Shown here: positions 2,342 to 28,766 of the stretch, in pieces | Layout of the letters: the number at the start of each line of letters is the position of its first letter | How positions within the stretch are numbered: position 1 is the first letter of the stretch | Assembly: GCF_058153355.1 (NCBI RefSeq) | Contig: NZ_CM177019.1 | Reading direction: 5' to 3' (one strand) | Length of the DNA: 64,000 bases | Made by a program: the position numbers and the translations under genes | The notes under the pieces: generated by a model | Seen by the model: the letters and a program-made list of their open reading frames with translations, nothing else | What the model was told of the DNA's origin: nothing | Database searches by the model: none

Positions 2342-2348
2342 GTCTGAC

Positions 2349-2376
2349 AGGTGCCGGATTTCATATCCGGCACTTA
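2349..2376. terminator. rho-independent terminator hairpin after tpiA (palindromic, could act on both strands)
   Basis: Inverted repeat gtgccggat-ttcat-atccggcac followed by a T-rich run. Confidence 0.6.
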
Positions 2377-2395
2377 CTTTCCTTAACTCCTCGCC

Positions 2396-3151
2396 TTAAC
2401 GCAAAATCTCACACTGATGATCCTGGATTTCCTCGGCTGAAGCACGGTTCAGCGTCAGTAGATTTCGTTGTGTCGCCAGCAACACAAACGAATTATCACT
2501 CTGCCGCACCATCGCCAGCCCGTAGCTTCCCATATGTTCCCGCGCCTCAGGCACTTCTTCTGCAAGCATCATAAATGGACTGCGTTGTACCAGTTCGCTT
2601 TCCGTTACCCGACGCGCCAGATATTCATGCCCGCGCAAGCCACCTGGCAGCGGCAACCAGCGACTGCTGATGTTCGCCAGATTATTATCCAGCTGTTCGC
2701 GCACATCAGGGCGAATACAAGAGATATGAATATGAAAATGGTTTTGCGTACGTCCGGTGCGGGAGTTAATCGCTAAAGAAACCGCGCGATCGGGAACCGG
2801 CTGCCCATATTTTTTACTCATAAAATCACGCGCCTGCCAGGCCAACCAAAAAAAGTTAGGCGTAGAAGGATCGGTCAACAAAGGGCTTTCAGTACCGTTA
2901 ATACGATACGTTGGCATCAACAGATATTGCAGTGGACCATTGAGGTCTTTTAAAACCACATATCCGGCATTGGGTTTGACTTCCGCACATGGCGAAGGAT
3001 TTTGATTTTGCTGCTGATTGGGTAAACATTCCTCAAGGACAATCTTACGTAATGTATCCGACTCTTCGCCGGTTAATTTCCAGTAACCAATACCAGCAGC
3101 CACAACGGCGATAACTATCATCACCAAAAAAAGAAGACCCGCTTTTTTCAT
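2396..3151 (-). CDS. cdh: CDP-diacylglycerol pyrophosphatase
   Basis: The longer ORF is 2396..3343. Start is placed at the internal ATG (3151..3149) that begins a membrane-anchor N-terminus ([24 protein letters not shown]), giving 251 aa. Confidence 0.85.
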
Positions 3152-3202
3152 CTTTTTTTCCCTGTACCTCAAAGAGATGCAAGGGTAACGCAAAATCGTG
3201 AC

Positions 3203-3245
3203 AAATAAAAAACCCGGTCGCGAGAAACCACCGGGGTTGATAATT
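3203..3245 (-). terminator. likely rho-independent terminator of sbp
   Basis: Minus-strand hairpin (ccccggtggtttctcgcgaccggg) followed by TTTTTTATTT. Confidence 0.5.
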
Positions 3246-3257
3246 ATCCTGGGGAAA

Positions 3258-4247
3258 TCAGCGTTTGCTGATCTGATCGAACGTACCGCCGTTAGCAAAA
3301 TGCTCTTTTTGCGCTTTCGTCCAGCCGCCGAACTCTTCATCAATGGTGAATAACTTCAATTTTGGAAACGCATTTTCGTACTTTTTCGCTACCTCAGCGT
3401 CGCGCGGACGGTAGTAGTTTTTCGCGGCAATTTCCTGACCTTCTGGCGAGTAGAGATATTTCAGGTAGGCTTCCGCCACCTCTTTAGTACCTTTTTTCTC
3501 AACCACTTTATCGACCACCGACACGGTTGGCTCTGCGAGGATAGACTCACTCGGCGTGACGATTTCGAATTTATCTTTCCCCAGTTCATTCGCTGCCAGC
3601 AGAGCTTCGTTTTCCCAGGCAATCAGTACATCGCCAATTCCGCGCTCGACAAAAGTGTTAGTGGAGCCGCGCGCGCCAGAATCCAGAACTTCGACGTTTT
3701 TATACAGTGCCCGAACAAAATCCTGCGCTTTTGCCTGATCGTTGTTGTTGTGGTGCAGCGCGTAGCCCCAGGCAGCCAGGTAGTTCCAGCGCGCGCCACC
3801 AGAGCTTTTCGGATTAGGCGTGATCACCGAAACACCCGGTTTAATCAGATCGTTCCAGTCATGGATCTGCTTCGGATTGCCCTTACGTACCAGGAAAACA
3901 ATGGTGGAAGTGTACGGTGCGGAGTTATCCGGCAGACGTTTGATCCACTCTTTATCAATCCGCCCGCGTTCCGCAATTGCGTCCACGTCATAGGCCAGAG
4001 CCAGAGTGACAACATCAGCTTCAATACCATTGATTACCGACGTCGCTTGTTTGCCTGAACCACCGTGTGACTGACGAATCACCACGTTATCGCCAGTTTG
4101 CTGTTTCCAGTGGGCGCTGAATGCCTTGTTGTACTGTTCGTACAATTCGCGCGTTGGATCATATGAAACGTTAAGAAGCTGAATATCCTTTGCCATAACG
4201 CTGGTTGCCGCCAGCAAAAATGTTAACCCTACGCCCCACTTGTTCAT
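3258..4247 (-). CDS. sbp: periplasmic sulfate-binding protein
   Basis: 329-aa ORF with signal peptide; sequence recognised as Sbp. Confidence 0.92.
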
Positions 4248-4407
4248 CGCCCGACTCTCTTATGTTGTGTTGTGATGAGCAAAGCGTGCCAGAAGGTTAA
4301 CCAAACATTAAAGAATAAAAAAAGATTGGCTATAACTTGCGGGTATATGTTGGGGGATTAAAAAGGCGGAAGAAATCCGCCTCATATTGCTGATAAAGTG
4401 CGCTTTG

Positions 4408-4512
4408 TCCATGCCATATGCGGCGCGAACGCCTTATACGGCCTACAAAAGTTTGCAAATTCAATAAATTGCAGAATTCATGTAGGCCTGATAAGCGAAG
4501 CGCATCAGGCAT
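4408..4512. repeat. REP/BIME-type extragenic palindromes
   Basis: Motifs such as gcggcgcgaacgccttatacggcctac and gtaggcctgataagcgaagcgcatcaggc match the E. coli REP consensus. Confidence 0.75.
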
Positions 4513-4566
4513 TTTTGCTTCTGTCATCGGTTTCAGGCTAAAGGAATCTGCCTTTTTCCGAAATCA

Positions 4567-5529
4567 TTAATACAGTTTTTTCGCGCAGTCCAGCCAGTCG
4601 CCTTTGAACGGACGCTTCATGTTTTCGATAGCGTCGATGATGTCGTGGTGAACCAGCTGTTCGTTCTGGATACCTACACAACGACCGCCGTAACCTGCCA
4701 GCAGCAGTTCAATGGCGTAAGCACCCATACGGGAAGCCAGAATACGGTCGTAAGGCACCGGAGAACCACCACGCTGAATGTGGCCCAACACAGTTGCACG
4801 GGTTTCACGACCAGTTTCTTTCTCGATGAAATGCGCCAGTTCGTCAACATCACACATATGTTCGGTAATCGCCACGATCGCGTGTTTTTTACCTTTCGCG
4901 ATACCCGCTTTGATTTCGTTTACCAGGTCTTCACGGCTGAATTCAACTTCCGGAACTACAACGAATTCACAGCCACCGGCAATGGCCGCAGCCAGGGTCA
5001 GATCGCCACAATAACGACCCATCACTTCCACCACGGAAATACGCTGGTGAGAAGAAGAGGTGTCACGCAGACGGTCGATCGCTTCTACAACGGTGCTCAG
5101 CGCAGTGAAGAAACCGATAGTGTAGTCAGTGCCTTTGATGTCGTTGTCGATAGTGCCCGGCAGGCCGATGCACGGGAAGCCCATTTCGGTCAGACGCATT
5201 GCACCCATGTAGGAACCGTCACCGCCGATAACCACCAGCGCGTCGATACCACGTTTTTTCAGGTTTTCGATAGCCACGGCGCGGATGTTCTCGTCGCGGA
5301 ATTCCGGGAAACGCGCAGAACCGAGGAACGTACCGCCACGGTTGATCATGTCAGACACGCTGTAACGGTCTAGCTGTACCATACGGTCTTCATACAGACC
5401 CAGATAGCCGTCATAAATACCCATTACTTCCAGACCTTCTGTCAGCGCAGAACGAACAACCCCGCGAATTGCGGCGTTCATGCCTGGCGCATCACCGCCG
5501 CTTGTCAACACACCGATTTTCTTAATCAT
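4567..5529 (-). CDS. pfkA: 6-phosphofructokinase I
   Basis: Start at internal ATG (5529..5527) giving 320 aa beginning [23 protein letters not shown]; the longer ORF extension is not used. Confidence 0.95.
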
Positions 5530-5709
5530 GACTACCTCTGAACTTTGGAATGCAAAATGAAATCTGTTGCCGGAAGTCTTCTTGCACATCGAAGTGATCC
5601 AACGAATGTGCAAATAGTATAACAATCACTTCCTGCTGAATTGATTCAGGTCAGGCCAAATGGCGGTATTTTATACACAAAATGCGGGTCTGGCTCTCTT
5701 TTATACTGA

Positions 5710-6612
5710 TTATGAAAGCATAGACCGTTTACCCTCCCTGGGTACGACGGAACAGGGGTCCTGATGGATAATCACATCCGATCCCGGAAAACGCCGTAAA
5801 ATAGCCTGCTCTACCTGATCCGCCACCATATGTGCCTGAACCAAAGGCAGAGAGTCTTCCATTTCCAAATGAATCTGAATAAAGCGGGTCGGCCCTGACT
5901 GCCGCGTGCGAAGATCGTGAGCGCCGCTAACACCCGGCCAGGAAGTCACGATATCAATAATTTCTTGCCGTTCCTCATCAGGTAATGCGCGATCCAGTAA
6001 TGACTGTACCGCCTCATATCCCATGCGTAACGCGCTATATAAAATATAGATGCCAATTCCCAATGCAAACAGAGCATCGGCGCGATGCCAGCCGTACCAG
6101 GACAACCCCAGCGCCAGCAGAATTGCGCCGTTCATCATAACATCAGACTGGTAATGTAGCATATCAGCCCGCACCGCCTGGCTTTGCGTCCGGCGCACCA
6201 CCCACCGCTGAAACGAGACAAGGATAATCGTACAAATTAGCGCCACAATTGTCACGATAACCCCGACGCCTGGATCTGTCATCGGTGTTGGAGATACCAG
6301 ATGTTGAATACCCGTCAAAAACAGGAATAGTGCCGAACCGGAGATAAACATACTTTGCGCCAGCGCCGCGAGGGACTCAGCTTTACCGTGACCAAACGAG
6401 TGATTATCGTCGGCAGGTTGCAGGGAATATCGCACCACCAGTAAATTCGTCAACGACGCGCCGATATCCACCAGCGAATCCACCAGCGCGGCGAGAATAC
6501 TCACCGACCCGGTATACCACCATGCAAAAATTTTAATCAGCAATAGCAGCGAAGCCATCGCCGTTGCAGCAATCGCCGCCCGACTGACCAGCCGTCCATA
6601 AGATTGATTCAT
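5710..6612 (-). CDS. fieF: cation-diffusion-facilitator Zn/Fe efflux transporter
   Basis: 300 aa from internal ATG ([15 protein letters not shown]...); multi-pass membrane N-terminus plus cytoplasmic C-terminal domain. Confidence 0.9.
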
Positions 6613-6692
6613 AAATACTCCCGCTATCAACTGACGGTAGTATAACGGAAGCAAATCATCTGCAATGCATTAAGCAGTAGGCAAATTGAGGA

Positions 6693-6760
6693 TAAAAAAA
6701 AACCCCACATCATGTGGGGGAAGACAGGGATGGTGTCTATGGCAAGGAAAACAGGGTTTA
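6693..6760 (-). ncRNA. cpxQ: probable CpxQ sRNA (3' end-derived from cpxP mRNA) ending at the cpxP terminator
   Basis: Minus-strand GC hairpin (cccccacatgatgtgggg, 6703..6720) followed by a U-tract directly downstream of the cpxP stop. The sRNA assignment is established knowledge mapped by position. Confidence 0.45.
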
Positions 6761-7261
6761 CTACTGGGAACGTGAGTTGCTACTACTCAATAGCTTCAAC
6801 GATGAACTTTTTTGCCATTGCGTCACGTCGCGCAACTGCTCCATTCGTTGTTGATGTTTCTCGTTTAAAACCGCTTGCTGCTCCGGCGTTAACAGGCGAT
6901 ACATTTGGTTGCGGACTTTTGCCATCTCAACCTGACGAGCAATTTGCTCATTCGCCATTTTTTCTGCCTGTGCGCGCACAGCGTTTTCATCAAAATTTTC
7001 TGCGGTGACAAGGCGATGCATTGTCTCCAGTTCGCTAACATTAACAGGAGGCTGTTCGTGCCGGGCCTGTTGCATAAGATCTCGCATCTGCTGACGCTGA
7101 TGTTCGGTTAAACTTATGCCGTCGAACATATGGCTCTGCGTACTGCGCTGCGTAAGTTCTTCACCCGGATGCCAGTTATCGCCTGAACCGACTTCAGCAG
7201 CGTGGCTTAATGAACTGACTGCCAGCGTTGAGGCCATGACGGCAGCGGTAACTATGCGCAT
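6761..7261 (-). CDS. cpxP: periplasmic Cpx pathway inhibitor/adaptor
   Basis: 166 aa with signal peptide, divergent from cpxRA. Confidence 0.92.
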
Positions 7262-7340
7262 CATTTGCTCCCAAAATCTTTCTGTCGCGATTCAACGATA
7301 GAGAGTTTACGATTCAGGCTGCAAACATGCGTCAGGGGGT

Positions 7341-7355
7341 GTAAAACAACGTAAA
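7341..7355. promoter_or_regulatory. CpxR box in the cpxP-cpxRA divergent promoter region
   Basis: GTAAA-ACAAC-GTAAA matches the CpxR consensus GTAAA(N5)GTAAA. Confidence 0.7.
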
Positions 7356-7410
7356 GTCATGGATTAGCGACGTCTGATGACGTAATTTCTGCCTCGGAGG
7401 TATTTAAACA

Positions 7411-8109
7411 ATGAATAAAATCCTGTTAGTTGATGATGACCGAGAGCTGACTTCCCTGTTAAAGGAGCTGCTCGAGATGGAAGGCTTCAACGTGATTGTT
7501 GCCCACGATGGGGAGCAGGCGCTTGATCTTCTGGACGACAGCATTGATTTACTTTTGCTTGATGTCATGATGCCGAAGAAAAATGGTATCGACACATTAA
7601 AAGCACTTCGCCAGACACACCAGACGCCTGTCATTATGTTGACGGCGCGCGGCAGTGAACTTGATCGCGTTCTCGGCCTTGAGCTGGGCGCAGATGACTA
7701 TCTCCCGAAACCGTTTAATGATCGTGAGCTGGTGGCACGTATTCGCGCGATCCTGCGCCGTTCGCACTGGAGCGAGCAACAGCAAAACAACGACAACGGT
7801 TCACCGACACTGGAAGTTGATGCCTTAGTGCTGAATCCAGGCCGTCAGGAAGCCAGCTTCGACGGGCAAACGCTGGAGTTAACCGGCACTGAGTTTACCC
7901 TGCTCTATTTGCTGGCACAGCATCTGGGTCAGGTGGTTTCCCGTGAGCATTTAAGCCAGGAAGTGCTGGGCAAACGCCTGACGCCTTTCGACCGCGCTAT
8001 CGATATGCACATTTCCAACCTGCGTCGTAAACTGCCGGATCGTAAAGATGGTCACCCGTGGTTTAAAACCTTGCGTGGTCGCGGCTATCTGATGGTTTCT
8101 GCTTCATGA
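7411..8109 (+). CDS. cpxR: OmpR-family response regulator
   Basis: 232 aa; receiver domain and winged-helix C-terminus. Confidence 0.95.
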   Translation: MNKILLVDDDRELTSLLKELLEMEGFNVIVAHDGEQALDLLDDSIDLLLLDVMMPKKNGIDTLKALRQTHQTPVIMLTARGSELDRVLGLELGADDYLPKPFNDRELVARIRAILRRSHWSEQQQNNDNGSPTLEVDALVLNPGRQEASFDGQTLELTGTEFTLLYLLAQHLGQVVSREHLSQEVLGKRLTPFDRAIDMHISNLRRKLPDRKDGHPWFKTLRGRGYLMVSAS

Positions 8110-9479
8110 TAGGCAGCTTAACCGCGCGCATCTTCGCCATCTTCTGGCTGACGCTGGCGCTGGTGTTGATGTTGGTTTTGATGTTACCCAAGCTCGATTC
8201 ACGCCAGATGACCGAGCTTCTGGATAGCGAACAGCGTCAGGGGCTGATGATTGAGCAGCATGTCGAAGCGGAACTGGCGAACGATCCGCCCAACGATTTA
8301 ATGTGGTGGCGGCGTCTGTTCCGGGCGATTGATAAGTGGGCACCGCCAGGACAGCGTTTGTTATTGGTGACCACCGAGGGCCGCGTGATCGGCGCTGAAC
8401 GCAGCGAAATGCAGATCATTCGTAACTTTATTGGTCAGGCCGATAACGCCGATCACCCGCAAAAGAAAAAGTATGGCCGCGTGGAACTGGTCGGTCCGTT
8501 CTCCGTGCGTGATGGCGAAGATAATTACCAACTGTATCTGATTCGTCCGGCCAGCAGTTCTCAATCCGATTTCATTAACTTACTGTTTGACCGCCCGCTA
8601 TTACTGCTGATTGTGACTATGTTGGTCAGTACACCGTTGCTGTTGTGGTTGGCCTGGAGTCTGGCAAAACCGGCGCGTAAGCTGAAAAACGCTGCCGATG
8701 AAGTTGCCCAGGGGAACTTACGCCAGCATCCGGAACTGGAAGCGGGGCCACAGGAATTTCTTGCCGCTGGTGCCAGTTTTAACCAGATGGTGACCGCGCT
8801 GGAGCGCATGATGACCTCCCAGCAGCGCCTCCTTTCTGATATCTCTCACGAACTGCGCACGCCACTGACGCGCCTGCAACTGGGTACGGCGTTATTGCGC
8901 CGTCGTAGTGGTGAAAGCAAGGAACTGGAGCGTATTGAAACCGAAGCCCAGCGTCTGGACAGCATGATCAACGACCTGTTGGTGATGTCACGTAATCAGC
9001 AGAAAAACGCGCTGGTGAGCGAGACATTGAAAGCTAACCAGTTGTGGGGTGAAGTGCTGGATAACGCGGCGTTCGAAGCGGAACAAATGGGCAAGTCGTT
9101 TACGGTTAACTTCCCGCCTGGGCCGTGGCCTCTGTATGGCAACCCGAACGCTCTGGAAAGTGCGCTGGAAAACATTGTTCGTAATGCCCTGCGTTATTCC
9201 CATACGAAGATTGAGGTGGGCTTTGCGGTAGATAAAGATGGTATCACCATTACGGTGGACGACGATGGTCCTGGCGTTAGCCCGGAAGATCGCGAGCAGA
9301 TTTTCCGTCCGTTCTATCGCACCGATGAAGCGCGCGATCGTGAATCTGGCGGTACGGGCTTAGGGCTGGCGATTGTCGAAACAGCTATCCAGCAGCACCG
9401 TGGTTGGGTGAAGGCAGAAGACAGCCCGCTGGGCGGTTTGCGGCTGGTGATTTGGCTGCCGCTGTATAAGCGGAGTTAA
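8106..9479 (+). CDS. cpxA: envelope-stress sensor histidine kinase
   Basis: 457 aa; start overlaps the cpxR stop (ATGA); H-box SHELRTPLT and ATP-binding motifs. Confidence 0.95.
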   Translation: MIGSLTARIFAIFWLTLALVLMLVLMLPKLDSRQMTELLDSEQRQGLMIEQHVEAELANDPPNDLMWWRRLFRAIDKWAPPGQRLLLVTTEGRVIGAERSEMQIIRNFIGQADNADHPQKKKYGRVELVGPFSVRDGEDNYQLYLIRPASSSQSDFINLLFDRPLLLLIVTMLVSTPLLLWLAWSLAKPARKLKNAADEVAQGNLRQHPELEAGPQEFLAAGASFNQMVTALERMMTSQQRLLSDISHELRTPLTRLQLGTALLRRRSGESKELERIETEAQRLDSMINDLLVMSRNQQKNALVSETLKANQLWGEVLDNAAFEAEQMGKSFTVNFPPGPWPLYGNPNALESALENIVRNALRYSHTKIEVGFAVDKDGITITVDDDGPGVSPEDREQIFRPFYRTDEARDRESGGTGLGLAIVETAIQQHRGWVKAEDSPLGGLRLVIWLPLYKRS

Positions 9480-9486
9480 ACTCCGC

Positions 9487-9577
<91 letters not shown>

Positions 9578-9584
9578 CCGGGGG

Positions 9585-10259
9585 TTATTTTCCCCACAAC
9601 CGGCGGGAAAAATCTTCGATCTTGCCGCTCAGTCGGCGCTTCTGCATCGTTCGCGTCCAGCTTTTCGATAGTCCGGCTGCGGAAAGCAAACGGTGATACT
9701 GCTCATCATCAAACGGCATATGCCATGCGATGGCGGCAGCCTCCTGCACGGTCACATCACTGACACGGGAAACCAACTCCAGCGGCGCATCAGCAGATAC
9801 CAACCCTGGCGCAATCACGCTATACAACCACCCCACTTTACCCGTGTTTTGCATCAACTGCGCTATATCGCTGATATCAAAATGGTAATTGAGTTTATAG
9901 CAAGGGGAGCGTGGCTGGCTGACCTGAATTAATGCCTCTCCCCAGCGGAAAATATCGCCAATATAAACATTACTTTCCGTCAGACCGTCGGTTGAGAGAT
10001 TTTCGCCAAACGCAGGCGCAACAAACAACTCCGCCTGTTCCGGAAATTCCCGCGCCCAGTAGAGATAGTGCTCACGAGGATAATGACACAGCGCTCTGTC
10101 TGGCCCGCCGTGAACCTTCTTCTCCGCCTGCTCGTCACCTTCCAGCCCCAGCTCCGTCAGCATCAACTCACCATCAACCTGGATTTTGGCAATTGCGCTG
10201 GGTTTGCCTTCGGGATAAGCCTGAATCTTGCCCGTGTATACATCAACCGGATATCGCAT
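9585..10259 (-). CDS. yiiM: MOSC-domain protein (6-N-hydroxylaminopurine resistance)
   Basis: 224 aa from internal ATG (MRYPVDVYTGKIQAY...). Confidence 0.85.
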   Translation of the reverse strand: MRYPVDVYTGKIQAYPEGKPSAIAKIQVDGELMLTELGLEGDEQAEKKVHGGPDRALCHYPREHYLYWAREFPEQAELFVAPAFGENLSTDGLTESNVYIGDIFRWGEALIQVSQPRSPCYKLNYHFDISDIAQLMQNTGKVGWLYSVIAPGLVSADAPLELVSRVSDVTVQEAAAIAWHMPFDDEQYHRLLSAAGLSKSWTRTMQKRRLSGKIEDFSRRLWGK

Positions 10260-10407
10260 CTGTTCCCTCTCCACGAGAAATTTCCCCATTAGACCATATT
10301 TATTTTATGTCAGGCGTGCTGTTTTCGCGGTATGTATCCAGGCAGGAGCTCAATCGCAAACCGGACGAACGTTAGTTCATCCGGCTGTGGGGATTAAGGA
10401 AGCAGGT

Positions 10408-11391
10408 TTATTTTACCGTGCCTAAAATTTCGATTTTCGCCACTCTGGCTTTGACTTTACGTGACCAGATAGAGGTAAGAATTGGCACCAGAATCGAAGT
10501 CACAATGACCGCCGTCGCGACCAGCGAAGTTGCTGCCGGAGCCATCGGTTTAAACGCAGGCACCATTTCAGCAATCAGCACAGGTGTCGCTACCGCGGCC
10601 CCTGCCGAACTGGAAGCGGCAATTCCGGCAGTGCCATCGCCACCGCCAATCAATTTATCGGCGATAATCAACGGAATACCGGTCACGATAATTACTGCCA
10701 CACCCAACAGGATCCCCAGCAAACCTGTCTGGGCAATTACAGTCAAATCAATGGTATTGCCCAGCGCGAAGGCAAAGAATGGAATCAGCGTCTGCACCGC
10801 TTTGCTGAAAAATTCTCGTAATTCAGGGTCAAGGTTCCCAAGGGCAAAGCCCACCAGGAACGGTAATACTGCGCCGACGAAAACATGCGGTTCAAACGAG
10901 GCAATCCCGGCAGTGCCCAGAATAATCATCGTCATGAGCGGCCCGGACTCCAATGACATCAACACAAATGCCCCAGCTTCTTCTTTCGTACCGTACTGCT
11001 GCATGATGGAAGCGTAAAGTCCGCCGTTGGTCATATCCATCGCCGCCACCAGCGCCAGCGTTGAAAGTCCGGCAAAGAATCCAACTTCAACACCATGTTC
11101 CGGAATAATGCGCGAGGCAATTGCCGCAACCACCCACGCGACGGCAATTTTTGTTACCACCAGCGTACCGGATTTACGCAATACCGTTCCCGTCGCGCTT
11201 AATTTTATTGACGCCCCCATGCAAAAAAACCACACCGCCAGAATGGGCACCGTACCGGTAATCATCCCGTTGGTGAATGATCCAAAATATTTCCCCGCCC
11301 CCGGCGAGAAGGTGTGGCACAGTGCGCCAAGGAATAGCGGGACGAGCATCATCCCCCCCGGGATTTTCTCAATCGAGCGTTTTATCTGCAT
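10408..11391 (-). CDS. kdgT: 2-keto-3-deoxygluconate permease
   Basis: 327 aa polytopic membrane protein starting [13 protein letters not shown]. Confidence 0.9.
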
Positions 11392-18440: not shown

Positions 18441-19265
18441 ATGCAAAACATTACCCAGTCCTGGTTTGTCCAGGGAATGATCAAAGCCACCACCGACGCC
18501 TGGCTGAAAGGCTGGGACGAGCGCAATGGTGGTAACCTGACGCTGCGCCTGGATGACGCCGATATCGCACCGTATCACGACAACTTTCATGCACAACCGC
18601 GCTATATCCCGCTCAGCCAGCCCATGCCTTTACTGGCAAATACACCGTTTATTGTCACCGGCTCCGGCAAATTCTTTCGTAACGTCCAGCTTGATCCTGC
18701 GGCTAACTTAGGCGTCGTAAAAGTCGACAGCGACGGCGCGGGCTACCACATTCTCTGGGGGCTAACTCACGAAGCCGTTCCAACCTCTGAACTTCCGGCT
18801 CACTTCCTTTCCCACTGTGAGCGCATTAAAGCCACCAACGGTAAAGATCGGGTGATCATGCACTGCCACGCCACCAACCTGATCGCCCTTACCTACGTAC
18901 TGGAAAACGACACCGCGCTCTTCACTCGCCAGCTTTGGGAAGGCAGCACCGAGTGTCTGGTAGTGTTCCCGGATGGCGTCGGCATTTTGCCGTGGATGGT
19001 GCCCGGCACGGACGAAATCGGCCAGGCGACCGCACAGGAAATGCAAAAACATTCGCTGGTGTTGTGGCCCTTCCACGGCGTCTTCGGCAGCGGTCCGACA
19101 CTGGATGAAACATTCGGTTTAATCGACACCGCAGAAAAATCAGCACAAGTATTAGTGAAGGTTTATTCGATGGGCGGCATGAAACAGACCATCAGTCGTG
19201 AAGAGCTGATAGCACTCGGCCAGCGTTTCGGCGTTACACCACTAGCCAGTGCGCTGGCGCTGTAA
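18441..19265 (+). CDS. rhaD: rhamnulose-1-phosphate aldolase
   Basis: 274 aa from internal ATG ([21 protein letters not shown]...); class II aldolase. Confidence 0.93.
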
Positions 19266-19274
19266 GGAGCAAAC

Positions 19275-19589
19275 ATGATCCGCAAAGCCTTTGTCATGCA
19301 GGTTAACCCCGACGCCCACGAAGAGTATCAGCGTCGGCATAATCCAATCTGGCCGGAACTGGAAGCAGTGTTGAAATCTCACGGTGCGCATAACTACGCC
19401 ATTTACCTCGACAAAGCGCGTAATCTGCTGTTTGCCACGGTAGAGATTGAATCTGAAGAACGGTGGAATGTGGTAGCCAGTACTGATGTTTGCCAACGTT
19501 GGTGGAAGTATATGACCGACGTTATGCCAGCTAACCCGGACAACAGCCCAGTCAGTAGCGAGCTGCAAGAAGTGTTTTACCTGCCTTAA
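19275..19589 (+). CDS. rhaM: L-rhamnose mutarotase
   Basis: 104 aa directly after rhaD. Confidence 0.9.
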
Positions 19590-19629
19590 TGAGTTGCGGT
19601 GCCGGAAAATATCCAGCACCGCGCCTTCA

Positions 19630-21024
19630 TCAGAAGAAGTATTTAAAGCGAACGCGTGCGCCGTAACGGTCATCAGTATCATCACCGTGTTTTTTATCAC
19701 CGTCGCTATCCAGAATGGAGTAATAAGTACCAAGGTAAATATTAAAGTTCTCCATATCCATCACATTAGCGAACTGATAAGACGCATGAATGGTGTGAAT
19801 GGTGTACGTCCCTTCATCATCAATCCAGCAGTCGTTATCACAAACTACACCGCTGAATTCATCAATCTTATTGTGCGCGTAGATATAACCCAGCTCGAAA
19901 CGTTTCCACAGCGCGTTAATCCCGGCAGTGAAATCTTTTTCATTATTAGCATCTAAATAGGCGGTATTAAGATTAACCACGACGCCATTTTCCGGATCCG
20001 TTTTCAGGCCATTCCAGGTCATGCTCATACCATAGCCGGTACGATCGGACTGATCGACAAAATTACCCTTGCTATCGGTATAACCATAAGCATTATTTAC
20101 TACGTTCGCTTCCATCGCTGCGGAAACGGTGAATTCTTCCGTCGGCGACCAGGCAATTACCGGACGCAGATAAGCAACATTTTTCTGCTGCTTCATATCG
20201 CGTCCATGATAATTACCGTCATTATATAAAGATGTTCCGTCTTCAAGTAACGTGTTTAATTCAAAATACCAGTTATCGAGTTGTTTGCTGACGAGGAAAT
20301 TACCGCCAGCGTTAGAGCGCCCGCGGCCCTCTTTCATCATATAGATATAACCGCTGCCATCGTCATAAAGATCGTTCGCAGTATTACCGGAATGTTCAAC
20401 AAAGGTATCCTGATTCAGCGGGAACATATCGTAGGCTTCAAAACGGCCTACTTTGACCTTCCAGTCGTTTTCTTTGCCAAAGAAGAATACCGCATCATCG
20501 ATATTTACTGAACCGTGCATATCCCCCAGCGGTTGTGCGGAGAACCCGGCGAAATAACCATTATCCAGTTTTCGCATACCATCAAAACCTAACAGAATAC
20601 GACCATTGAGATTCCACTGTTCATTAGTGGGATCGCTATTCACATCAGCGTTGGTCATTGCCAGCAGGCCATGATTACTTTCCGCATCCATATTAAATTC
20701 TACGTCGCCGTAGATTTTTAAATCGCCATAACCTGAAAGCAAAAGATTAGGTGAGGTGGCATTTTTCTTTGCAGATTCCGCCGTTGTCTGTCCATTTACC
20801 GGCGTATTGCCCTGGGCAGCCTTAATTTCGCGGATCTCAGCGGCTTGTTGTGTCTGCAGCTGTTTTACCTGCCCCTCTGCTTTTGCTGCCCGCATTTCTG
20901 CCGCTTCCAGGCGTTCTTCCAGCAATGCCATGCGTTGTTCCAGCGTTAAATGCTGTGTTTTTGCCATTCCGGTACTACATGCCAATAATAAACCGATGGC
21001 TAAAGATAATGTCGATTTTTTCAT
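19630..21024 (-). CDS. outer-membrane carbohydrate-porin-like protein with N-terminal coiled-coil extension (ScrY/BglH-like architecture)
   Basis: 464 aa; signal peptide MKKSTLSLAIGLLLACSTGMA, then a heptad-like region (LEQRMALLEERLEAAEMRAAKAEGQVKQLQTQQAAEIREIKAAQ), then an aromatic-rich barrel-like region ending in C-terminal Phe (..RFKYFF). Confidence 0.7.
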   Translation of the reverse strand: MKKSTLSLAIGLLLACSTGMAKTQHLTLEQRMALLEERLEAAEMRAAKAEGQVKQLQTQQAAEIREIKAAQGNTPVNGQTTAESAKKNATSPNLLLSGYGDLKIYGDVEFNMDAESNHGLLAMTNADVNSDPTNEQWNLNGRILLGFDGMRKLDNGYFAGFSAQPLGDMHGSVNIDDAVFFFGKENDWKVKVGRFEAYDMFPLNQDTFVEHSGNTANDLYDDGSGYIYMMKEGRGRSNAGGNFLVSKQLDNWYFELNTLLEDGTSLYNDGNYHGRDMKQQKNVAYLRPVIAWSPTEEFTVSAAMEANVVNNAYGYTDSKGNFVDQSDRTGYGMSMTWNGLKTDPENGVVVNLNTAYLDANNEKDFTAGINALWKRFELGYIYAHNKIDEFSGVVCDNDCWIDDEGTYTIHTIHASYQFANVMDMENFNIYLGTYYSILDSDGDKKHGDDTDDRYGARVRFKYFF

Positions 21025-21500
21025 TATTTACGTTCCCTGAAATAAAAGATACCCTACGCTTTCCAAAAGGAATACGTATATAGAGAAATATAAGGTGTGC
21101 ACTTTCGAATTTTTAATCCAACTTCAGCAGGCCGATGGATAGTATCCCGCTGCATAATATGAGTAAATCCGCTGATTTCCTGGAACGTGAGGAATATAAC
21201 AATAGTGCCGTTTTTAACTAAATATCGTAAAAAATATTAGATATAATTCACGCTGACTCATAAGCCACAAATATAAATAACCTTGCTGCAAAATATGTGC
21301 GGCAGTTAAACATTCACAACATCATTAAATAATGATTTTTTATTCACTGCATTTATTTTTCCCATCAATATGTGCCTTACACCGCAAAATTTATCCTTCA
21401 CTCTGCCTTATATTGTCACGACTTCACGACATATCCGCGCTCATCACAAAACCGCCCCGCCGTTACAATTAACTATAATATTTTTTCATGGAGTCCAATA

Positions 21501-21947
21501 ATGGCAGCACTTACTGCAAGCTGTATTGACCTGAATATTCAGGGCAATGGCACTTATTCCGTTCTGAAGCAGTTAGCGACAATGGCGTTACAAAACGGTT
21601 TTATCACCGACTCACATCAATTCCTGCAAACCCTGCTGGTGCGCGAAAAAATGCACTCCACCGGTTTTGGTTCTGGTGTCGCCGTGCCGCACGGTAAAAG
21701 CGCCTGTGTTAAACAACCGTTCGTATTATTCGCTCGCAAAGCGCAGGCCATTGACTGGAAAGCCAGCGATGGCGAAGACGTCAATTGCTGGATCTGCCTC
21801 GGCGTGCCGCAAAGTGGCGAAGAGGATCAGGTCAAAATCATCGGCACACTGTGTCGCAAAATTATCCACCAGGATTTTATCAACCAACTGCGACAAGGCG
21901 ACGCCGTCCAGGTGCTTGCTTTGTTAAATCAAACCCTCAGCTCATAA
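21501..21947 (+). CDS. frvA: PTS fructose-like EIIA component
   Basis: 148 aa from internal ATG (MAALTASCIDLNIQG...); EIIA(Fru/Mtl)-type with the conserved His context. Confidence 0.85.
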   Translation: MAALTASCIDLNIQGNGTYSVLKQLATMALQNGFITDSHQFLQTLLVREKMHSTGFGSGVAVPHGKSACVKQPFVLFARKAQAIDWKASDGEDVNCWICLGVPQSGEEDQVKIIGTLCRKIIHQDFINQLRQGDAVQVLALLNQTLSS

Positions 21948-21957
21948 GGAAGTGGCG

Positions 21958-23409
21958 ATGGAGTCATCCTTACGTATTGTCGCGATCACCAACTGCCCCG
22001 CCGGGATCGCTCACACCTACATGGTGGCGGAAGCCCTGGAACAGAAAGCCCGTTCTCTCGGTCATACCATTAAAGTTGAAACTCAAGGATCAAGCGGCGT
22101 CGAAAACCGCTTATCCAGCGAAGAGATTGCCGCTGCCGATTACGTGATTCTCGCTACCGGGCGTGGCCTGAGCGGTGATGATCGCGCGCGATTTGCCGGG
22201 AAAAAGGTTTATGAGATTGCCATCTCCCAGGCGCTGAAAAATATCGACCAGATTTTCAGTGAATTACCGACAAACTCACAACTTTTTGCCGCAGATAGCG
22301 GCGTGAAGCTCGGCAAACAGGAAGTGCAAAGTGGCAGCGTAATGAGCCATCTGATGGCGGGCGTCTCTGCGGCGCTGCCGTTTGTCATCGGTGGCGGTAT
22401 CCTGGTGGCGCTTGCCAACATGCTGGTGCAGTTCGGTTTGCCGTATACCGATATGTCGAAAGGTGCGCCGTCGTTTACCTGGGTGGTTGAATCCATCGGT
22501 TATCTCGGTTTCACCTTTATGATCCCCATCATGGGCGCTTATATTGCCTCGTCGATTGCCGATAAACCCGCTTTCGCTCCGGCGTTTCTGGTTTGTTATC
22601 TGGCGAACGACAAAGCCCTGCTCGGCACCCAGTCTGGCGCGGGCTTCCTCGGTGCGGTGGTGCTTGGGCTGGCGATTGGCTATTTCGTCTTCTGGTTCCG
22701 TAAAGTGCGCCTTGGCAAAGCATTACAACCGCTGCTCGGTTCCATGCTGATCCCGTTCGTTACTCTGCTGGTTTTTGGCGTACTGACTTACTACGTTATC
22801 CGACCGGTGATGTCCGACCTCATGGGCGGGTTGCTGCACTTCCTGAACACCATTCCTCCGTCAATGAAGTTTGCGGCGGCGTTTCTGGTTGGTGCGATGC
22901 TGGCATTCGATATGGGCGGCCCCATCAACAAAACCGCCTGGTTCTTCTGCTTCTCTCTGCTGGAAAAACACATTTACGACTGGTACGCCATCGTCGGCGT
23001 TGTCGCGCTAATGCCGCCTGTCGCGGCGGGTCTTGCGACGTTCATTGCGCCCAAACTGTTTACTCAACAGGAAAAAGAAGCCGCCAGTAGCGCCATAGTG
23101 GTCGGTGCCACAGTCGCAACCGAACCGGCTATTCCTTACGCTCTGGCAGCCCCGTTGCCGATGATTACCGCCAATACGCTGGCGGGCGGTATTACCGGCG
23201 TGCTGGTGATCGCTTTCGGAATCAAACGTCTGGCACCTGGTTTGGGTATCTTTGACCCGCTGATCGGCCTGATGTCGCCGGTAGGTTCGTTTTATCTGGT
23301 GCTGGCGATTGGCCTCGCGCTGAACATTTCATTCATTATCGTCCTGAAAGGATTATGGTTACGCCGCAAAGCCAAAGCTGCGCAACAGGAGCTTGTCCAT
23401 GAACATTGA
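21958..23409 (+). CDS. frvB: PTS fructose-like EIIBC component
   Basis: 483 aa from ATG 21958 (SD aagga upstream); N-terminal EIIB Cys motif (ITNCPAGIAHTYM) then polytopic EIIC. Confidence 0.88.
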   Translation: MESSLRIVAITNCPAGIAHTYMVAEALEQKARSLGHTIKVETQGSSGVENRLSSEEIAAADYVILATGRGLSGDDRARFAGKKVYEIAISQALKNIDQIFSELPTNSQLFAADSGVKLGKQEVQSGSVMSHLMAGVSAALPFVIGGGILVALANMLVQFGLPYTDMSKGAPSFTWVVESIGYLGFTFMIPIMGAYIASSIADKPAFAPAFLVCYLANDKALLGTQSGAGFLGAVVLGLAIGYFVFWFRKVRLGKALQPLLGSMLIPFVTLLVFGVLTYYVIRPVMSDLMGGLLHFLNTIPPSMKFAAAFLVGAMLAFDMGGPINKTAWFFCFSLLEKHIYDWYAIVGVVALMPPVAAGLATFIAPKLFTQQEKEAASSAIVVGATVATEPAIPYALAAPLPMITANTLAGGITGVLVIAFGIKRLAPGLGIFDPLIGLMSPVGSFYLVLAIGLALNISFIIVLKGLWLRRKAKAAQQELVHEH

Positions 23410-24469
23410 GTTACTGCAACAGTTGTGCGAAGCCAGCGCCGTCAGCGGCGATGAACAGGAAGTTCGCGACATTCTGATGAACACGCTGGAACCCTGCGTG
23501 AATGAGATCACCTTCGATGGTCTGGGCAGCTTTGTTGCCCGTAAGGGGAATAAAGGGCCGAAAGTTGCCGTTGTCGGGCATATGGATGAAGTCGGCTTTA
23601 TGGTCACCCACATCGACGAGAGCGGTTTTCTGCGTTTTACCACCATTGGCGGCTGGTGGAATCAGTCGATGCTCAACCACCGGGTAACCATACGCACACA
23701 CAAGGGAGTGAAAATCCCTGGTGTAATTGGCTCCGTCGCGCCACATGCGTTAACCGAAAAGCAAAAGCAACAACCGCTGTCATTTGATGAGATGTTCATT
23801 GATATTGGCGCGAACAGTCGCGAAGAAGCGGAAAAACGTGGCGTGGAAATTGGCGATTTTATTAGCCCGGAAGCCAATTTTGCCTGCTGGGGCGAAGATA
23901 AAGTGGTCGGCAAGGCGTTGGATAACCGCATCGGCTGCGCAATGATGGCTGAACTATTGCAGACGGTGAATAACCCCGAAATTACGCTTTATGGCGTTGG
24001 CAGTGTGGAAGAAGAAGTTGGGCTACGCGGGGCACAAACCTCGGCTGAACACATTAAACCGGATGTGGTGATCGTGCTGGATACCGCCGTCGCGGGCGAT
24101 GTTCCGGGCATTGATAACATTAAATACCCGCTGAAACTGAGCAACGGGCCGGGGCTGATGTTGTTTGACAAGCGCTACTTCCCCAACCAGAAACTGGTAG
24201 CAGCGTTAAAAAACTGTGCCGTACATAACGATTTACCACTGCAATTTTGCACCATGAAAACCGGAGCGACGGATGGCGGGCGCTACAACGTGATGGGCGG
24301 CGGGCGTCCGGTTGTCGCGCTGTGCCTGCCAACGCGTTATCTGCACGCTAACAGCGGCATGATTTCAAAAGCCGATTACGATGCTCTGCTCACGTTGATA
24401 AGGGATTTTCTGACCACCTTAACCGCGGAGAAAGTCAACGCGTTTAGCCAGTTCCGTCAGGTGGATTAA
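23399..24469 (+). CDS. frvX: M42-family aminopeptidase/endoglucanase-like protein
   Basis: 356 aa; start overlaps the frvB 3' end. Confidence 0.85.
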   Translation: MNIELLQQLCEASAVSGDEQEVRDILMNTLEPCVNEITFDGLGSFVARKGNKGPKVAVVGHMDEVGFMVTHIDESGFLRFTTIGGWWNQSMLNHRVTIRTHKGVKIPGVIGSVAPHALTEKQKQQPLSFDEMFIDIGANSREEAEKRGVEIGDFISPEANFACWGEDKVVGKALDNRIGCAMMAELLQTVNNPEITLYGVGSVEEEVGLRGAQTSAEHIKPDVVIVLDTAVAGDVPGIDNIKYPLKLSNGPGLMLFDKRYFPNQKLVAALKNCAVHNDLPLQFCTMKTGATDGGRYNVMGGGRPVVALCLPTRYLHANSGMISKADYDALLTLIRDFLTTLTAEKVNAFSQFRQVD

Positions 24470-25782
24470 TGCTAAACGAACGCCAGTTAAAGATTGTCGA
24501 TCTGCTGGAGCAACAGCCACGCACGCCTGGCGAGCTGGCGCAACAGACTGGCGTTTCTGGCAGGACCATCCTGCGTGATATTGACTATCTCAACTTTACC
24601 CTTAACGGCAAAGCCCGCATTTCCGCCAGTGGCAACGCGGGCTATCAGCTGGAAATCTTCGAGCGCCGCAGCTTTTTTCAGTTGCTGCAAAAGCACGATA
24701 ACGACGATCGGCTGCTGGCGCTGTTATTACTGAATACCTTCACTCCCCGTGCGCAACTCGCCTCGGCGCTTAATTTGCCAGAAACGTGGGTCGCAGAGCG
24801 TCTGCCCCGCCTGAAACAGCGCTATGAACGCGGTTTTTGTCTCGCTAGTCGCCCTGGTTTGGGCCATTTCATTGATGAGACAGAAGAGAAACGCATTATT
24901 TTGCTGGCGAATCTTTTACGCAAAGATCCGTTTTTAATTCCGCTGTCGGGAGTAACACGAGACAATTTTCAACAATTAACCACCGCCTGCGAAAAGCAAC
25001 GTCGCTGGCCGCTGATGCAAGGCGACTATCTCTCAAGCCTGATTCTGGCTATTTACGCGTTGCGTAATCAGCTTACTGACACATGGCCTGAATATCCCGG
25101 TAGCGAGATAAAACAGATTGTTGAATATAGCGGCCTGTTTCTTGGTGATAACGCTGTAAGAACGCTGACGGGGTTGATAGAAAAACAGTATCAGCAAGCA
25201 CAGGTAATTTCTGCCGATCATGTGCTGGCATTGCTGCAAAGGGTGCCGGGCATTGCGTCATTGAATATTATTGATACGCAGCTGGTTGAGAATATTACCG
25301 GGCATTTATTACGTTGCCTTGCCGCGCCGGTGTGGATTGGTGAGCACCGCCAAAGCAGCATGAATAACCTGAAAGCCGCCTGGCCTGCGGCCTTTGATAT
25401 GAGTCTGCACTTTATTACGCTACTGCGTGAACAGCTCGATATTCCCCTTTTCGACAGCGATCTGATTGGTTTGTATTTTGCCTGTGCGCTGGAACGGCAT
25501 CAAAACGAACGCCAGCCGATCATTTTGCTCTCTGATCAGAACGCGATTGCCACTATTAATCAGCTCGCCATTGAGCGCGATGTCCTGAATTGTCGGGTGA
25601 TTATTGCCCGCAGCGTAAGCGAACTGGTTGCCATTCGCGAAGAGATTGAGCCGTTATTGATCATTAATAACAGCCATTATTTACTGGATGACGCGGTCAA
25701 TAATTGCATCATCGTAAAAAATATCATTACGGCTGCCGGTATCGAACAAATAAAACATTTTCTGGCGACGGCATTTATTCGC

Positions 25783-25794
25783 CAGCAACCGGAG
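25783..25794. repeat. IS4 target-site duplication, left copy (CAGCAACCGGAG)
   Basis: 12-bp direct repeat flanking the element; identical copy at 27221..27232. Confidence 0.85.
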
Positions 25795-27220
25795 TAATGC
25801 CGATCAGTTAAGGATCAGTTGACCGATCCAGTGGCTGTGTAAGAATCCGGAAACGCTCACTTGTTTCCGGATTTTTTTATGCACATTGGACAGGCTCTTG
25901 ATCTGGTATCCCGTTACGATTCTCTGCGTAACCCACTGACTTCTCTGGGGGATTACCTCGACCCCGAACTCATCTCTCGTTGCCTTGCCGAATCAGGTAC
26001 TGTAACGCTACGCAAGCGCCGTCTTCCCCTCGAAATGATGGTCTGGTGTATTGTTGGCATGGCGCTTGAGCGTAAAGAACCTCTTCACCAGATTGTGAAT
26101 CGCCTGGACATCATGCTGCCGGGCAATCGCCCCTTCGTTGCCCCCAGTGCCGTTATTCAGGCCCGCCAGCGCCTGGGAAGTGAGGCTGTCCGCCGCGTGT
26201 TCACGAAAACAGCGCAGCTCTGGCATAACGCCACGCCGCATCCGCACTGGTGCGGCCTGACCCTGCTGGCCATCGATGGTGTGTTCTGGCGCACACCGGA
26301 TACACCAGAGAACGATGCAGCCTTCCCCCGCCAGACACATGCCGGGAACCCGGCGCTCTACCCGCAGGTCAAAATGGTCTGCCAGATGGAACTGACCAGC
26401 CATCTGCTGACGGCTGCAGCCTTCGGCACGATGAAGAACAGCGAAAATGAGCTTGCTGAGCAACTTATAGAACAAACCGGCGATAACACTCTGACGTTAA
26501 TGGATAAAGGTTATTACTCACTGGGACTGTTAAATGCCTGGAGCCTGGCGGGAGAACACCGCCACTGGATGATACCTCTCAGAAAGGGAGCGCAATATGA
26601 AGAGATCAGAAAACTGGGTAAAGGCGATCATCTGGTGAAGCTGAAAACCAGCCCGCAGGCACGAAAAAAGTGGCCGGGACTGGGAAATGAAGTGACAGCC
26701 CGCCTGCTGACCGTGACGCGCAAAGGAAAAGTCTGCCATCTGCTGACGTCGATGACGGACGCCATGCGCTTCCCCGGAGGAGAAATGGCGGATCTGTACA
26801 GTCATCGCTGGGAAATCGAACTGGGATACAGGGAGATAAAACAGACGATGCAACTGAGCAGGCTGACGCTGAGAAGTAAAAAGCCGGAGCTTGTGGAGCA
26901 AGAGCTGTGGGGTGTCTTACTGGCTTATAATCTGGTGAGATATCAGATGATTAAAATGGCGGAACATCTGAAAGGTTACTGGCCGAATCAACTGAGTTTC
27001 TCAGAATCATGCGGAATGGTGATGAGAATGCTGATGACATTGCAGGGCGCTTCACCGGGACGTATACCGGAGCTGATGCGCGATCTTGCAAGTATGGGAC
27101 AACTTGTGAAATTACCGACAAGAAGGGAAAGGGCCTTCCCGAGAGTGGTAAAGGAGAGGCCCTGGAAATACCCCACAGCCCCGAAAAAGAGCCAGTCAGT
27201 TGCTTAACTGACTGGCATTA
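25795..27220 (+). mobile_element. IS4 insertion sequence, complete (1426 bp)
   Basis: Imperfect 18-bp terminal inverted repeats (taatgccgatcagttaag / cttaactgactggcatta), one transposase ORF, length exactly 1426 bp, flanked by a 12-bp duplication. Confidence 0.93.
25879..27207 (+). CDS. insG: IS4 transposase (DDE)
   Basis: 442 aa from [27 protein letters not shown]...; recognised as the IS4 transposase. Confidence 0.92.
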
Positions 27221-27232
27221 CAGCAACCGGAG
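27221..27232. repeat. IS4 target-site duplication, right copy (CAGCAACCGGAG)
   Basis: Identical to 25783..25794. Confidence 0.85.
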
Positions 27233-27710
27233 CGTTTTTTTTCTGCCCCCGGAAGTTTTCATTATTCGAATGTACGTGGTGAAAGCTGGCAACATATTAC
27301 CCGGCAAATATGTGCTCAATTAGTGACGCAACACCACATTACCGCCGATGAAGCACAACGGATCATCGCCCGCGAAAGCGAAGGCGAAAACCTGATTGTT
27401 AATCGTCTCGCCATCCCACATTGCTGGAGCGAACAGGAACGACGTTTTCGTGGATTTTTTATTACCCTCGCCCAACCGGTTGAGGTGAATAACGAAGTAG
27501 TTAACCATGTGCTGATCGCCTGTGCCGCCGCCGATGCGCGTCATGAGCTAAAAATATTTAGCTATCTTGCCAGCGTATTGTGTCAGCATCCGGCAGAGGT
27601 TATTGCCGGGTTAACAGGATATGAGGCATTTATGGAGTTACTTCACAAGGGGTGAACTGTGTCGGATGCGCCGCATCCGACACTGCATTTATCACCAAAA
27701 TCAAAAACAT

Positions 27711-28766
27711 TTAACGCAGGCGATTATAGTCATCGACCATTTCGTTGTACTCGCGTAACGCTCGCGGAAATGAGTCGTCGACCATCCAGCTGGTGTTTGC
27801 ATCCTGAAGTTGCTCTTTATCCCAGTCAGAGTACGGAACTTTATCTCTGACGCGGCGAACATATTTTTTAGCCTCGAGTTGATACTGGTCTGCCGAATTA
27901 ATGAACGAGAAATTCATACCGCCTTTATCCGCTTCTTTGGCCTGCGCCACCAGCGTTTCCAGTTCAGAGACTTTCTTCATTGCCGCATCAACATCAAACT
28001 TCTCTTGCGAAATCAGGTTATTAATTTGTTTCGCTGAAATCATGACTGCCAGGGAGTAGTAGTGGAATGTTTTTCCTTCTGTTTCTTCAATATTTTTCAG
28101 TTCCGCAAGCTGACGCTTATCGTTAATTTCCTGAATCGCCGCATGATAAGATTCTGCTACAGGTTCAAAGGCTTCAAGATTTTTTAAGAATGTCTGGTGC
28201 AGCGTTTTCCCTTTCGCAAACGCATCGTCTTTATAATTTTCCTGGGTGTAATATTTATCCATTTCGTTAATGGTATTACCCAACGCCACGGCAGCATCAA
28301 TATAACTCACCGCCACGCCATCAATAGGTTGCAGCGCAGGCGTTAACGCCACAGCACTTTTTACGCCTTTTTCACACTCAGCGAGGTTGGATTCACTAAT
28401 ACCGTAGATACCATAAACAGTACGCTCTTCACCGGTAGGGCCCTGTTTAAAATCTTTCAGCCAGTCAGCATAACGCGCCAGACTGCTCTGTACAGGGATC
28501 TGTAACTTGTTGTAGCACTTGATATAGACATCCATTTTTTCGTCGAAAACCGCTTGTTCATCGACCACCGGTTGAGCAGGCGTTTCAGGTTTAACTTCTG
28601 CTTTTGTAACGGGAGCTTCAGCAGGTTTCGCTTCAGGAGCTGGTGCGGCAGGTTGACTATTGGCAGGCGGGGGCGTTTCTGTTTCGGTTTTTTTATCATC
28701 ACAACCCGTGATACCGAGAGCCATGATGGCGGCTATAATAGCGGAAGATAATAAATTCCTTTTCAT
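27711..28766 (-). CDS. yiiG: DUF3829-family lipoprotein
   Basis: 351 aa; lipobox (LGITGC) then Pro/Ala-rich linker. Confidence 0.85.
   Translation of the reverse strand: MKRNLLSSAIIAAIMALGITGCDDKKTETETPPPANSQPAAPAPEAKPAEAPVTKAEVKPETPAQPVVDEQAVFDEKMDVYIKCYNKLQIPVQSSLARYADWLKDFKQGPTGEERTVYGIYGISESNLAECEKGVKSAVALTPALQPIDGVAVSYIDAAVALGNTINEMDKYYTQENYKDDAFAKGKTLHQTFLKNLEAFEPVAESYHAAIQEINDKRQLAELKNIEETEGKTFHYYSLAVMISAKQINNLISQEKFDVDAAMKKVSELETLVAQAKEADKGGMNFSFINSADQYQLEAKKYVRRVRDKVPYSDWDKEQLQDANTSWMVDDSFPRALREYNEMVDDYNRLR

Follow-up and report, generated by a model that had tools for sequence, protein, structure and literature searches.

The gene that lies between rhaM and frvA in the 64,000-nt stretch of E. 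coli DNA analysed here (the window) is probably a chromosomal paralogue or orthologue of the plasmid-borne raffinose porin RafY, an orphan that would form a wide pore for oligosaccharides and would have no dedicated part in the frv system. The gene is already annotated, belongs to a curated family and has been named in the literature. RefSeq gives it the product name 'carbohydrate porin' in near-identical and in sampled genomes, and a comparative study of O157:H7 calls it rafY2 and notes the absence of accompanying rafRABD genes (PMC4809568). Our literature search on frvA, rhaM and the porin, and on the O157 loci by guessed O157 locus tags, found nothing relevant.

Architecture and family of the porin

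The original prediction described a 464-aa minus-strand gene with a signal peptide, a heptad-repeat segment and a terminal phenylalanine, and each of these was recovered: an open reading frame at 19630-21024, a six-heptad helix at residues 28-70 and a C-terminus that reads ...RVRFKYFF (Table 1). The N-terminus, MKKSTLSLAIGLLLACSTGMA followed by KTQ, is a typical Sec signal, and its G-x-A cleavage motif is kept among the orthologues as TG[FMI]A before K. Cys16, part of a lipobox-like LLAC, is peculiar to the E. coli allele. We considered a lipoprotein and rejected it, since the Cys is missing in all orthologues and the signal-peptidase I motif is kept; the precursor is therefore read as a signal-peptidase I substrate.

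Table 1. Features of the porin locus and its flanks, in window coordinates
Feature	Position	Strand	Basis
RafY-family glycoporin CDS ('rafY2', 'carbohydrate porin')	19630..21024	-	ATG start, 464 aa plus stop; ORF list, PF16966, RefSeq annotation
Signal peptide, residues 1-21 (MKKSTLSLAIGLLLACSTGMA)	20962..21024	-	Sequence; predicted signal-peptidase I cut before Lys22
Predicted periplasmic coiled-coil extension, residues 28-70, about six heptads	20815..20943	-	AlphaFold2 helix, hydrophobic 3/4 spacing
Flexible low-complexity linker, residues 71-100	20725..20814	-	pLDDT 37-43, secondary structure absent
Modelled beta-barrel domain, residues 101-464, 16 main strands, C-terminal Phe	19633..20724	-	
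Porin-specific upstream region, 34% GC, occurring solely alongside the porin	21025..21365	-	K-12-like genomes without 19591-21365
frvA-proximal upstream region, belonging to frv and not to the porin segment	21366..21500	+	Common to porin-less K-12-like genomes
Spacer between the convergent rhaM and porin stops, 40 bp, with hairpin	19590..19629	.	Sequence

The protein was modelled with AlphaFold2 from an alignment of 52 family members (25-85% identity), giving a mean pLDDT of 81 and a pTM of 0.71. Along the chain the model places a signal helix, a single helix at residues 28-70 (pLDDT 81-88), an unstructured linker (71-100) and a barrel (101-464). In the translation, hydrophobic residues follow a 3/4 spacing at positions 28, 32, 35, 39, 42, 46, 49, 53, 56, 60, 64 and 67. 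The linker differs between orthologues, and the coiled-coil extension is missing from distant family members of 350-390 aa. A beta-barrel topology, proposed as a check on the original prediction, is present in the model, with 16 main strands and a long loop (residues 195-240) joining strands 5 and 6; both strand count and loop placement are derived from the model, as no member of the family has a solved structure. No stretch of the family is better conserved than this loop (FEAYDMFPL...YIYMMKEGRGRS), which in the model takes the place held in general porins by the constriction loop L3. A structure comparison showed that the modelled barrel fits 16-stranded porins better than ScrY/LamB. Sixteen strands and a loop at the L3 position, as modelled, point to the general-porin class and not to LamB/ScrY; the ScrY-like part of the porin would be limited to the predicted coiled coil.

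Against Pfam the porin matched PF16966 (Porin_8, 'Porin-like glycoporin RafY') with E=2.8e-154 and 514.1 bits (cut-off 25), residues 104-464 aligning with profile positions 1-372 of 372, and the same profile is found in all 52 aligned relatives. Membership of the LamB/ScrY or OprB families, for which an HMM search had been suggested, did not hold up: neither LamB (PF02264) nor OprB (PF04966) matched at E<=1. NCBIfam gave no meaningful match. Searches of PDB sequences, with the porin itself (phmmer) and with a profile of the 52-sequence family, returned no porin match, so that a solved relative is undetectable by sequence. The ScrY-type Sugarporin_N profile (PF11471) aligned with residues 27-52 at 15.0 bits and E=0.031, below its cut-off of 25.7, and is found at E<=0.01 in 20 of the 52 RafY-family members. 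On these profile matches the correct family is RafY (PF16966), not LamB/ScrY or OprB. TCDB-based work assigns 16 strands to the RafY family (TCDB 1.B.15) and sets it apart from the neighbouring LamB/ScrY sugar porins (PMC4827864). A secreted 16-strand barrel with an aromatic C-terminus, the trait of the family, is seen in the porin through its signal peptide, its AlphaFold2 model and its C-terminal FF. A position at the end of a sugar-utilisation cluster, which is the typical context of the family and not a strict criterion, is not that of the E. coli gene. What stands of the earlier description as a ScrY/BglH-type sugar porin is an outer-membrane porin of carbohydrate type with a predicted coiled coil and a beta-barrel; the type itself is RafY (PF16966), with 16 modelled strands.

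The closest known likeness is plasmid RafY. As a stand-in for the pRSD2 type we used the porin encoded after LacI-type, GH36, MFS and GH32 genes on the E. coli IncF plasmid NZ_CP091039.1, which has the classical rafR-rafA-rafB-rafD-rafY arrangement. Both proteins are 464 aa long and belong to the same Pfam family; they are 78% identical with 0 gaps, rising to 97% across residues 226-380, and they share the order of signal peptide, coiled coil, linker and barrel. However, divergence is strong in the signal peptide, the coiled coil and the barrel's first third (47-78% at the amino acid level, with third codon positions saturated). Since the N-terminal 220 residues are far more diverged from RafY than the remainder, the pore properties could differ. 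The plasmid gene is clustered with raf genes, whereas the E. coli porin is a chromosomal orphan with rafR, rafA, rafB and rafD not nearby, and no homology was found between its upstream region and the plasmid rafD-rafY spacer. The chromosomal porin and plasmid rafY show a mosaic pattern of similarity, and the regional identities between them give no direction for gene conversion between plasmid and chromosome. A rhaD-rhaM-porin segment was also seen captured on a plasmid. In the 1998 work, as far as it is cited in PMC4827864, plasmid RafY is a wide general-diffusion channel that raises the uptake of raffinose, sucrose and maltodextrins.

Other systems are alike in part. ScrY, LamB and BglH (PF02264, TCDB 1.B.3) also serve oligosaccharide uptake across the outer membrane, and ScrY bears an N-terminal periplasmic coiled coil, the one described by the PF11471 model; their barrel, however, has 18 strands, against 16 in the model of the porin. 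Trimeric porins of 16 strands that have an N-terminal extension or are sugar-specific include DcaP of A. baumannii, VhChiP of Vibrio harveyi and OprB of Pseudomonas, yet these are just 8-14% identical to the porin and belong to other Pfam families; neither an OprB nor a general-porin HMM matched the porin. GlyP of Klebsiella pneumoniae is, like the porin, a member of the RafY family, and is described as an alternative porin with a larger channel, normally low-expressed or repressed, whose derepression alters nutrient competition once the major porins are lost (bioRxiv 10.64898/2026.03.29.715108). The glyP gene is preceded by genes for a LacI-type repressor, a permease and a hydrolase, whereas the E. 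coli porin is without adjacent regulator or catabolic genes.

Position at rhaM and distribution

In the window, rhaM (19275-19589, plus strand) converges on the porin gene at a distance of 40 bp. The spacer holds a hairpin with stems at 19596-19605 and 19613-19622, which a promoter/terminator scan did not call as an intrinsic terminator. On the other side, the start of frvA lies at 21501 (transferred from the RefSeq annotation of a 99.7%-identical genome, NZ_ABACVG020000001.1), which sets the divergent porin-frvA spacer at 21025-21500, or 476 bp; with a GC content of 0.34 it is the AT-rich divergent region that had been predicted. The porin gene itself has 42-47% GC and the flanking genes 0.52-0.56. 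An Rfam scan of 19000-22000 gave a single match at chance level, and a repeat search of the region gave nothing meaningful. Further along the window, frvR is broken by an IS4 element.

Presence was scored at no less than 80% query coverage in a sample of 5426 complete E. coli genomes. The porin gene was found in 2556 of them, in agreement with the expectation that it is strain-variable, frvAB in 4191 and the porin-to-frvAB junction in 1376. By subtraction, about 1376 genomes carry both porin and frv, about 1180 the porin only, about 2815 frv only and about 55 neither. The porin is inherited independently of frv, and the raw association between the two is negative. Three locus types were distinguished. 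The order rhaM-porin-frvABXR-yiiG is that of the window and of O157:H7. In U12A and Seattle 1946 the porin is followed by fdhD, frvABXR and part of yiiG being deleted (approximately window 21484-27729, with 21385-21483 kept in the deleted genomes). K-12-like genomes, from whose gene list the porin had been suspected to be absent, match the window as far as 19590 and resume at 21366; between rhaM and frvA they have 164 unrelated bp in place of 19591-21365. The 135 bp beside frvA are common to the porin-less genomes, so frv keeps a proximal region of its own; the porin segment (19591-21365) was lost in the K-12-like lineages.

Orthologues with 81-85% identity are present in several Citrobacter species, in C. 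rodentium and in Kluyvera, where they lie tail-to-tail with rhaM. Their other flank holds a gene for an HTH_3/cupin regulator and azlCD, and frv is absent. The tight tail-to-tail junction of rhaM and porin is kept in Citrobacter, Kluyvera and Klebsiella. As this synteny exists without frv, the conserved partner of the porin is its position at rhaM: we read the porin as an old enterobacterial gene with a positional tie to the rhamnose operon's end, standing as an orphan behind an upstream region of its own in E. coli, Citrobacter and Kluyvera. At the rhaM site of Klebsiella sp. B345 we found genes for an HTH/cupin protein, a LacI-type regulator, a GH36 alpha-galactosidase, a LacY-type permease and Porin_8, followed by rhaM; this site is a chromosomal rafR-rafA-rafB-porin cluster with the porin last. 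Searched with tblastn, the whole window held no remnants of rafR, rafA or rafB, nor of the HTH/cupin gene of the Citrobacter type. From these gene orders, rafRAB may have been lost in E. coli, Citrobacter and Kluyvera, or may have been gained in Klebsiella beside a pre-existing porin; a history as the remnant of a raf cluster rests on one Klebsiella locus. More distant members of the family keep similar company. A member in Buttiauxella closes an operon with an ABC transporter, GH13, GH130 and DUF1861, and one in Budvicia comes after an AraC-type regulator, an MFS transporter and a GH78 alpha-L-rhamnosidase. These operons indicate that the recurring functional partners of the RafY family are glycoside-utilisation genes.

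Selection and competing explanations

Among E. coli alleles of the porin, including those of frv-less genomes, dN/dS is 0.04-0.09 (dS up to 0.26), and it is 0.04-0.07 between the E. coli porin and those of other genera, which shows that the protein has long been under strong purifying selection, with frv or without it. In all five RefSeq genomes whose annotation was read the gene is intact and unflagged as a pseudogene; the original prediction would have been weakened by a pseudogene in most strains, and this is not what the sampled genomes show. A widespread frameshift allele (the 342-aa cluster P0059) was considered and rejected, its 1-bp deletion coming from one draft assembly and occurring in 0 of the 2543 region-carrying complete genomes. 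In HS30-1 the porin is reduced to a 75-bp remnant flanked by IS1. Real disruptions exist and look rare.

These data bear on the idea that an ancestral chromosomal raffinose operon left the porin behind without a function, as a gene that now decays or is silent in E. coli. Such an origin would agree with the presence of the whole rafR-rafA-rafB-porin set at the rhaM site of Klebsiella sp. B345 where E. coli has the porin alone, with the absence of the gene from about half of the strains, and with occasional disruptions such as the remnant in HS30-1 and the frameshift in the draft assembly. However, we consider it unlikely, given the low dN/dS within E. coli and the similar values against other genera, the full-length reading frame in all sampled complete genomes, the confinement of the frameshift to a draft, and the conservation of the gene in Citrobacter and Kluyvera, where it is an orphan too.

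The upstream region offers some information on regulation. A block at approximately 21186-21248 is conserved with Citrobacter, and alignment with the upstream regions of Citrobacter, Kluyvera and Klebsiella brought out the shared motifs TTTTTACGAT(A/T)TTT and TGTTAT(A/C)T..CTCACG, the latter also present in Kluyvera and in the rafB-porin spacer of Klebsiella. The promoter/terminator scan gave no more sites than shuffled sequence, and no porin promoter is therefore claimed. Under laboratory conditions the porin gene might not be expressed. In a crude test against the part of the rhaBAD promoter that is bound by RhaS and CRP, the best 17-mer upstream of the porin agreed at 12/17 positions, not above shuffles.

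This last result weighs on a second alternative, in which the porin would belong functionally to the rhamnose regulon, for instance by admitting rhamnose-containing oligosaccharides or rhamnosides. K-12-like strains use rhamnose without the porin gene. We regard this alternative as improbable, to about the same degree as a functionless leftover: the rhaM-porin junction kept in Escherichia, Citrobacter, Kluyvera and Klebsiella and the alpha-L-rhamnosidase context of the Budvicia family member speak in its favour, but rhaM and the porin gene are convergent and thus not co-transcribed, no similarity to the rhaBAD RhaS/CRP region rose above shuffles, K-12-like strains use rhamnose although they lack the gene, and the Klebsiella porin stands in line with raf genes, not with rha genes.

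Finally, the original proposal, in which the porin would serve the frvABXR PTS as a dedicated outer-membrane channel for its substrate and share a regulatory region with it, is very improbable: the divergent arrangement across the 476-bp AT-rich spacer in the window and about 1376 complete genomes, and a PTS for which no substrate is known, made it attractive, yet 2815 frv-positive genomes are without the porin, about 1180 genomes with frvABXR deleted keep it intact and under purifying selection, the orthologues of Citrobacter and Kluyvera have HTH/cupin and azlCD on that side in place of frv, the 135 bp beside frvA occur in porin-less genomes too, and in the window itself frvR is interrupted by IS4.

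Proposed role and significance

We favour an orphan glycoporin of the RafY type, which could work as follows. The precursor would be exported by Sec and cut after Ala21. Residues 101-464 would insert in the outer membrane as a 16-stranded, trimeric barrel of the general-porin type, with the loop between strands 5 and 6 folded inward, as modelled. By analogy with ScrY, residues 28-70 might form a periplasmic coiled coil bundling the three subunits. Homology to RafY suggests a wide, non-saturable diffusion pore for di- to oligosaccharides (raffinose, sucrose, maltose, maltodextrins), and the sugars would then feed whichever inner-membrane transporters the strain carries.

A more far-reaching proposal can be made only tentatively, and we hold it to be possible but on balance doubtful. 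The porin might be a conditionally expressed, large-channel 'reserve' porin, retained through purifying selection by roughly half of all E. coli strains (O157:H7 and the ATCC 25922 type among them) and measurably altering the scavenging of oligosaccharides in the gut; it might have a GlyP-like effect on permeability and fitness after loss of OmpF/OmpC, and repeated gene conversion with plasmid rafY might have shaped its barrel.

The analysis removes a tempting functional link to the frv PTS, and presents the RafY family as a modelled general-porin-like barrel of 16 strands combined with a predicted ScrY-like coiled coil. Half of E. coli would carry a constrained, predicted wide-channel porin, which could matter for the use of raffinose-family oligosaccharides in animal guts and, given what has been described for GlyP, for the permeability of the outer membrane.

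Gene order around rhaM and the porin upstream region

In Citrobacter, Kluyvera and Klebsiella (comparison loci L006-L012), rhaD and rhaM are separated by a gene for an Fe-dependent alcohol dehydrogenase, and the Kluyvera and Klebsiella loci have a four-gene ABC sugar transporter inserted there as well, whereas the E. coli rhaBADM operon of the window has neither. The chromosome of Klebsiella sp. B345 (L012, CP180443.1) carries at 2123-8389 a LacI-type regulator, a GH36 alpha-galactosidase, a LacY-type permease and a Porin_8 gene, flanked by an HTH-cupin gene and rhaM. This four-gene cluster differs from the arrangement in E. coli, Citrobacter and Kluyvera, where the porin stands alone at the same site.

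Upstream of the porin, the block TTTTTTACGATATTTAGTT...TTGTTATATTCCTCACG is common to the window and Citrobacter (L006, ~7727-7790), and its core, TGTTAT(A/C)T..CTCACG(AT), is also found 5' of the Kluyvera porin gene and in the rafB-porin spacer of Klebsiella. The block might serve as an operator or as an extended -10 promoter.

Features of the window discussed here (nt)
Feature	Coordinates	Size	Remarks
Porin segment similar to plasmid rafY	about 19750-20349		codons ~226-425
Conserved upstream block	~21186-21248		minus-strand reading
Interval deleted in other E. coli genomes	~21484-27729		frvABXR and 5' part of yiiG
Remaining N-terminal frvR ORF	24469-25797	442 aa	
IS4-family element	25795-27220	1426 bp	flanking 12-bp direct repeats (25783-25794, 27221-27232)
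Transposase ORF of the element	25861-27207	448 aa	Pfam Nterm_IS4 and DDE_Tnp_1

Interruption and loss of frv and variant porin alleles

In the window frvR is interrupted by an IS4-family element, which leaves an N-terminal ORF of 442 aa where the closest genome has a 582-aa regulator, so this strain probably has no active frv regulator. Elsewhere, a deletion has removed frvABXR together with the 5' portion of yiiG from ~1180 of the 5426 complete genomes of E. coli (U12A, Seattle 1946 and AHB3 among them; L002, L017 and L018), so that the porin upstream region adjoins a yiiG/DUF3829 pseudogene. The porin allele of Seattle 1946 (L017, 1501-2874) is annotated as intact; at 1374 bp and 457 aa it is in-frame and 21 bp (7 codons) shorter than other alleles. 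In HS30-1 (L020, 2501-3290) 75 bp from the 3' end of the porin gene survive directly beside an IS1A element, and all sequence from there as far as fdhD is absent; this is a separate, IS-associated loss of porin, frv and yiiG.

Probable exchange between chromosomal and plasmid porins

The conjugative plasmid CP057400.1 (L004, IncI-gamma/K1) carries a porin gene 99% identical to the chromosomal one, in a segment (7780-10584) that also holds ~220 bp of the porin upstream region, rhaM and rhaD, immediately preceded by MFS transporter and GH32 hydrolase genes. This segment looks like chromosomal DNA captured via recombination at rafY. The same porin is also found, at 99.1% identity, on six more plasmids (NZ_OQ534115.1-NZ_OQ534119.1 and similar).

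The chromosomal porin (19630-21024) and rafY of the E. coli raf plasmid (L005:8001-9395) are mosaic with respect to each other. Third-codon-position identity is 83-93% for codons 226-375 and about 73-89% onward to codon 425, as against just 27-57%, which is saturated, in the rest of the gene. Such patchy identity points to gene conversion in the past, in one direction or the other, between the chromosomal and plasmid copies.
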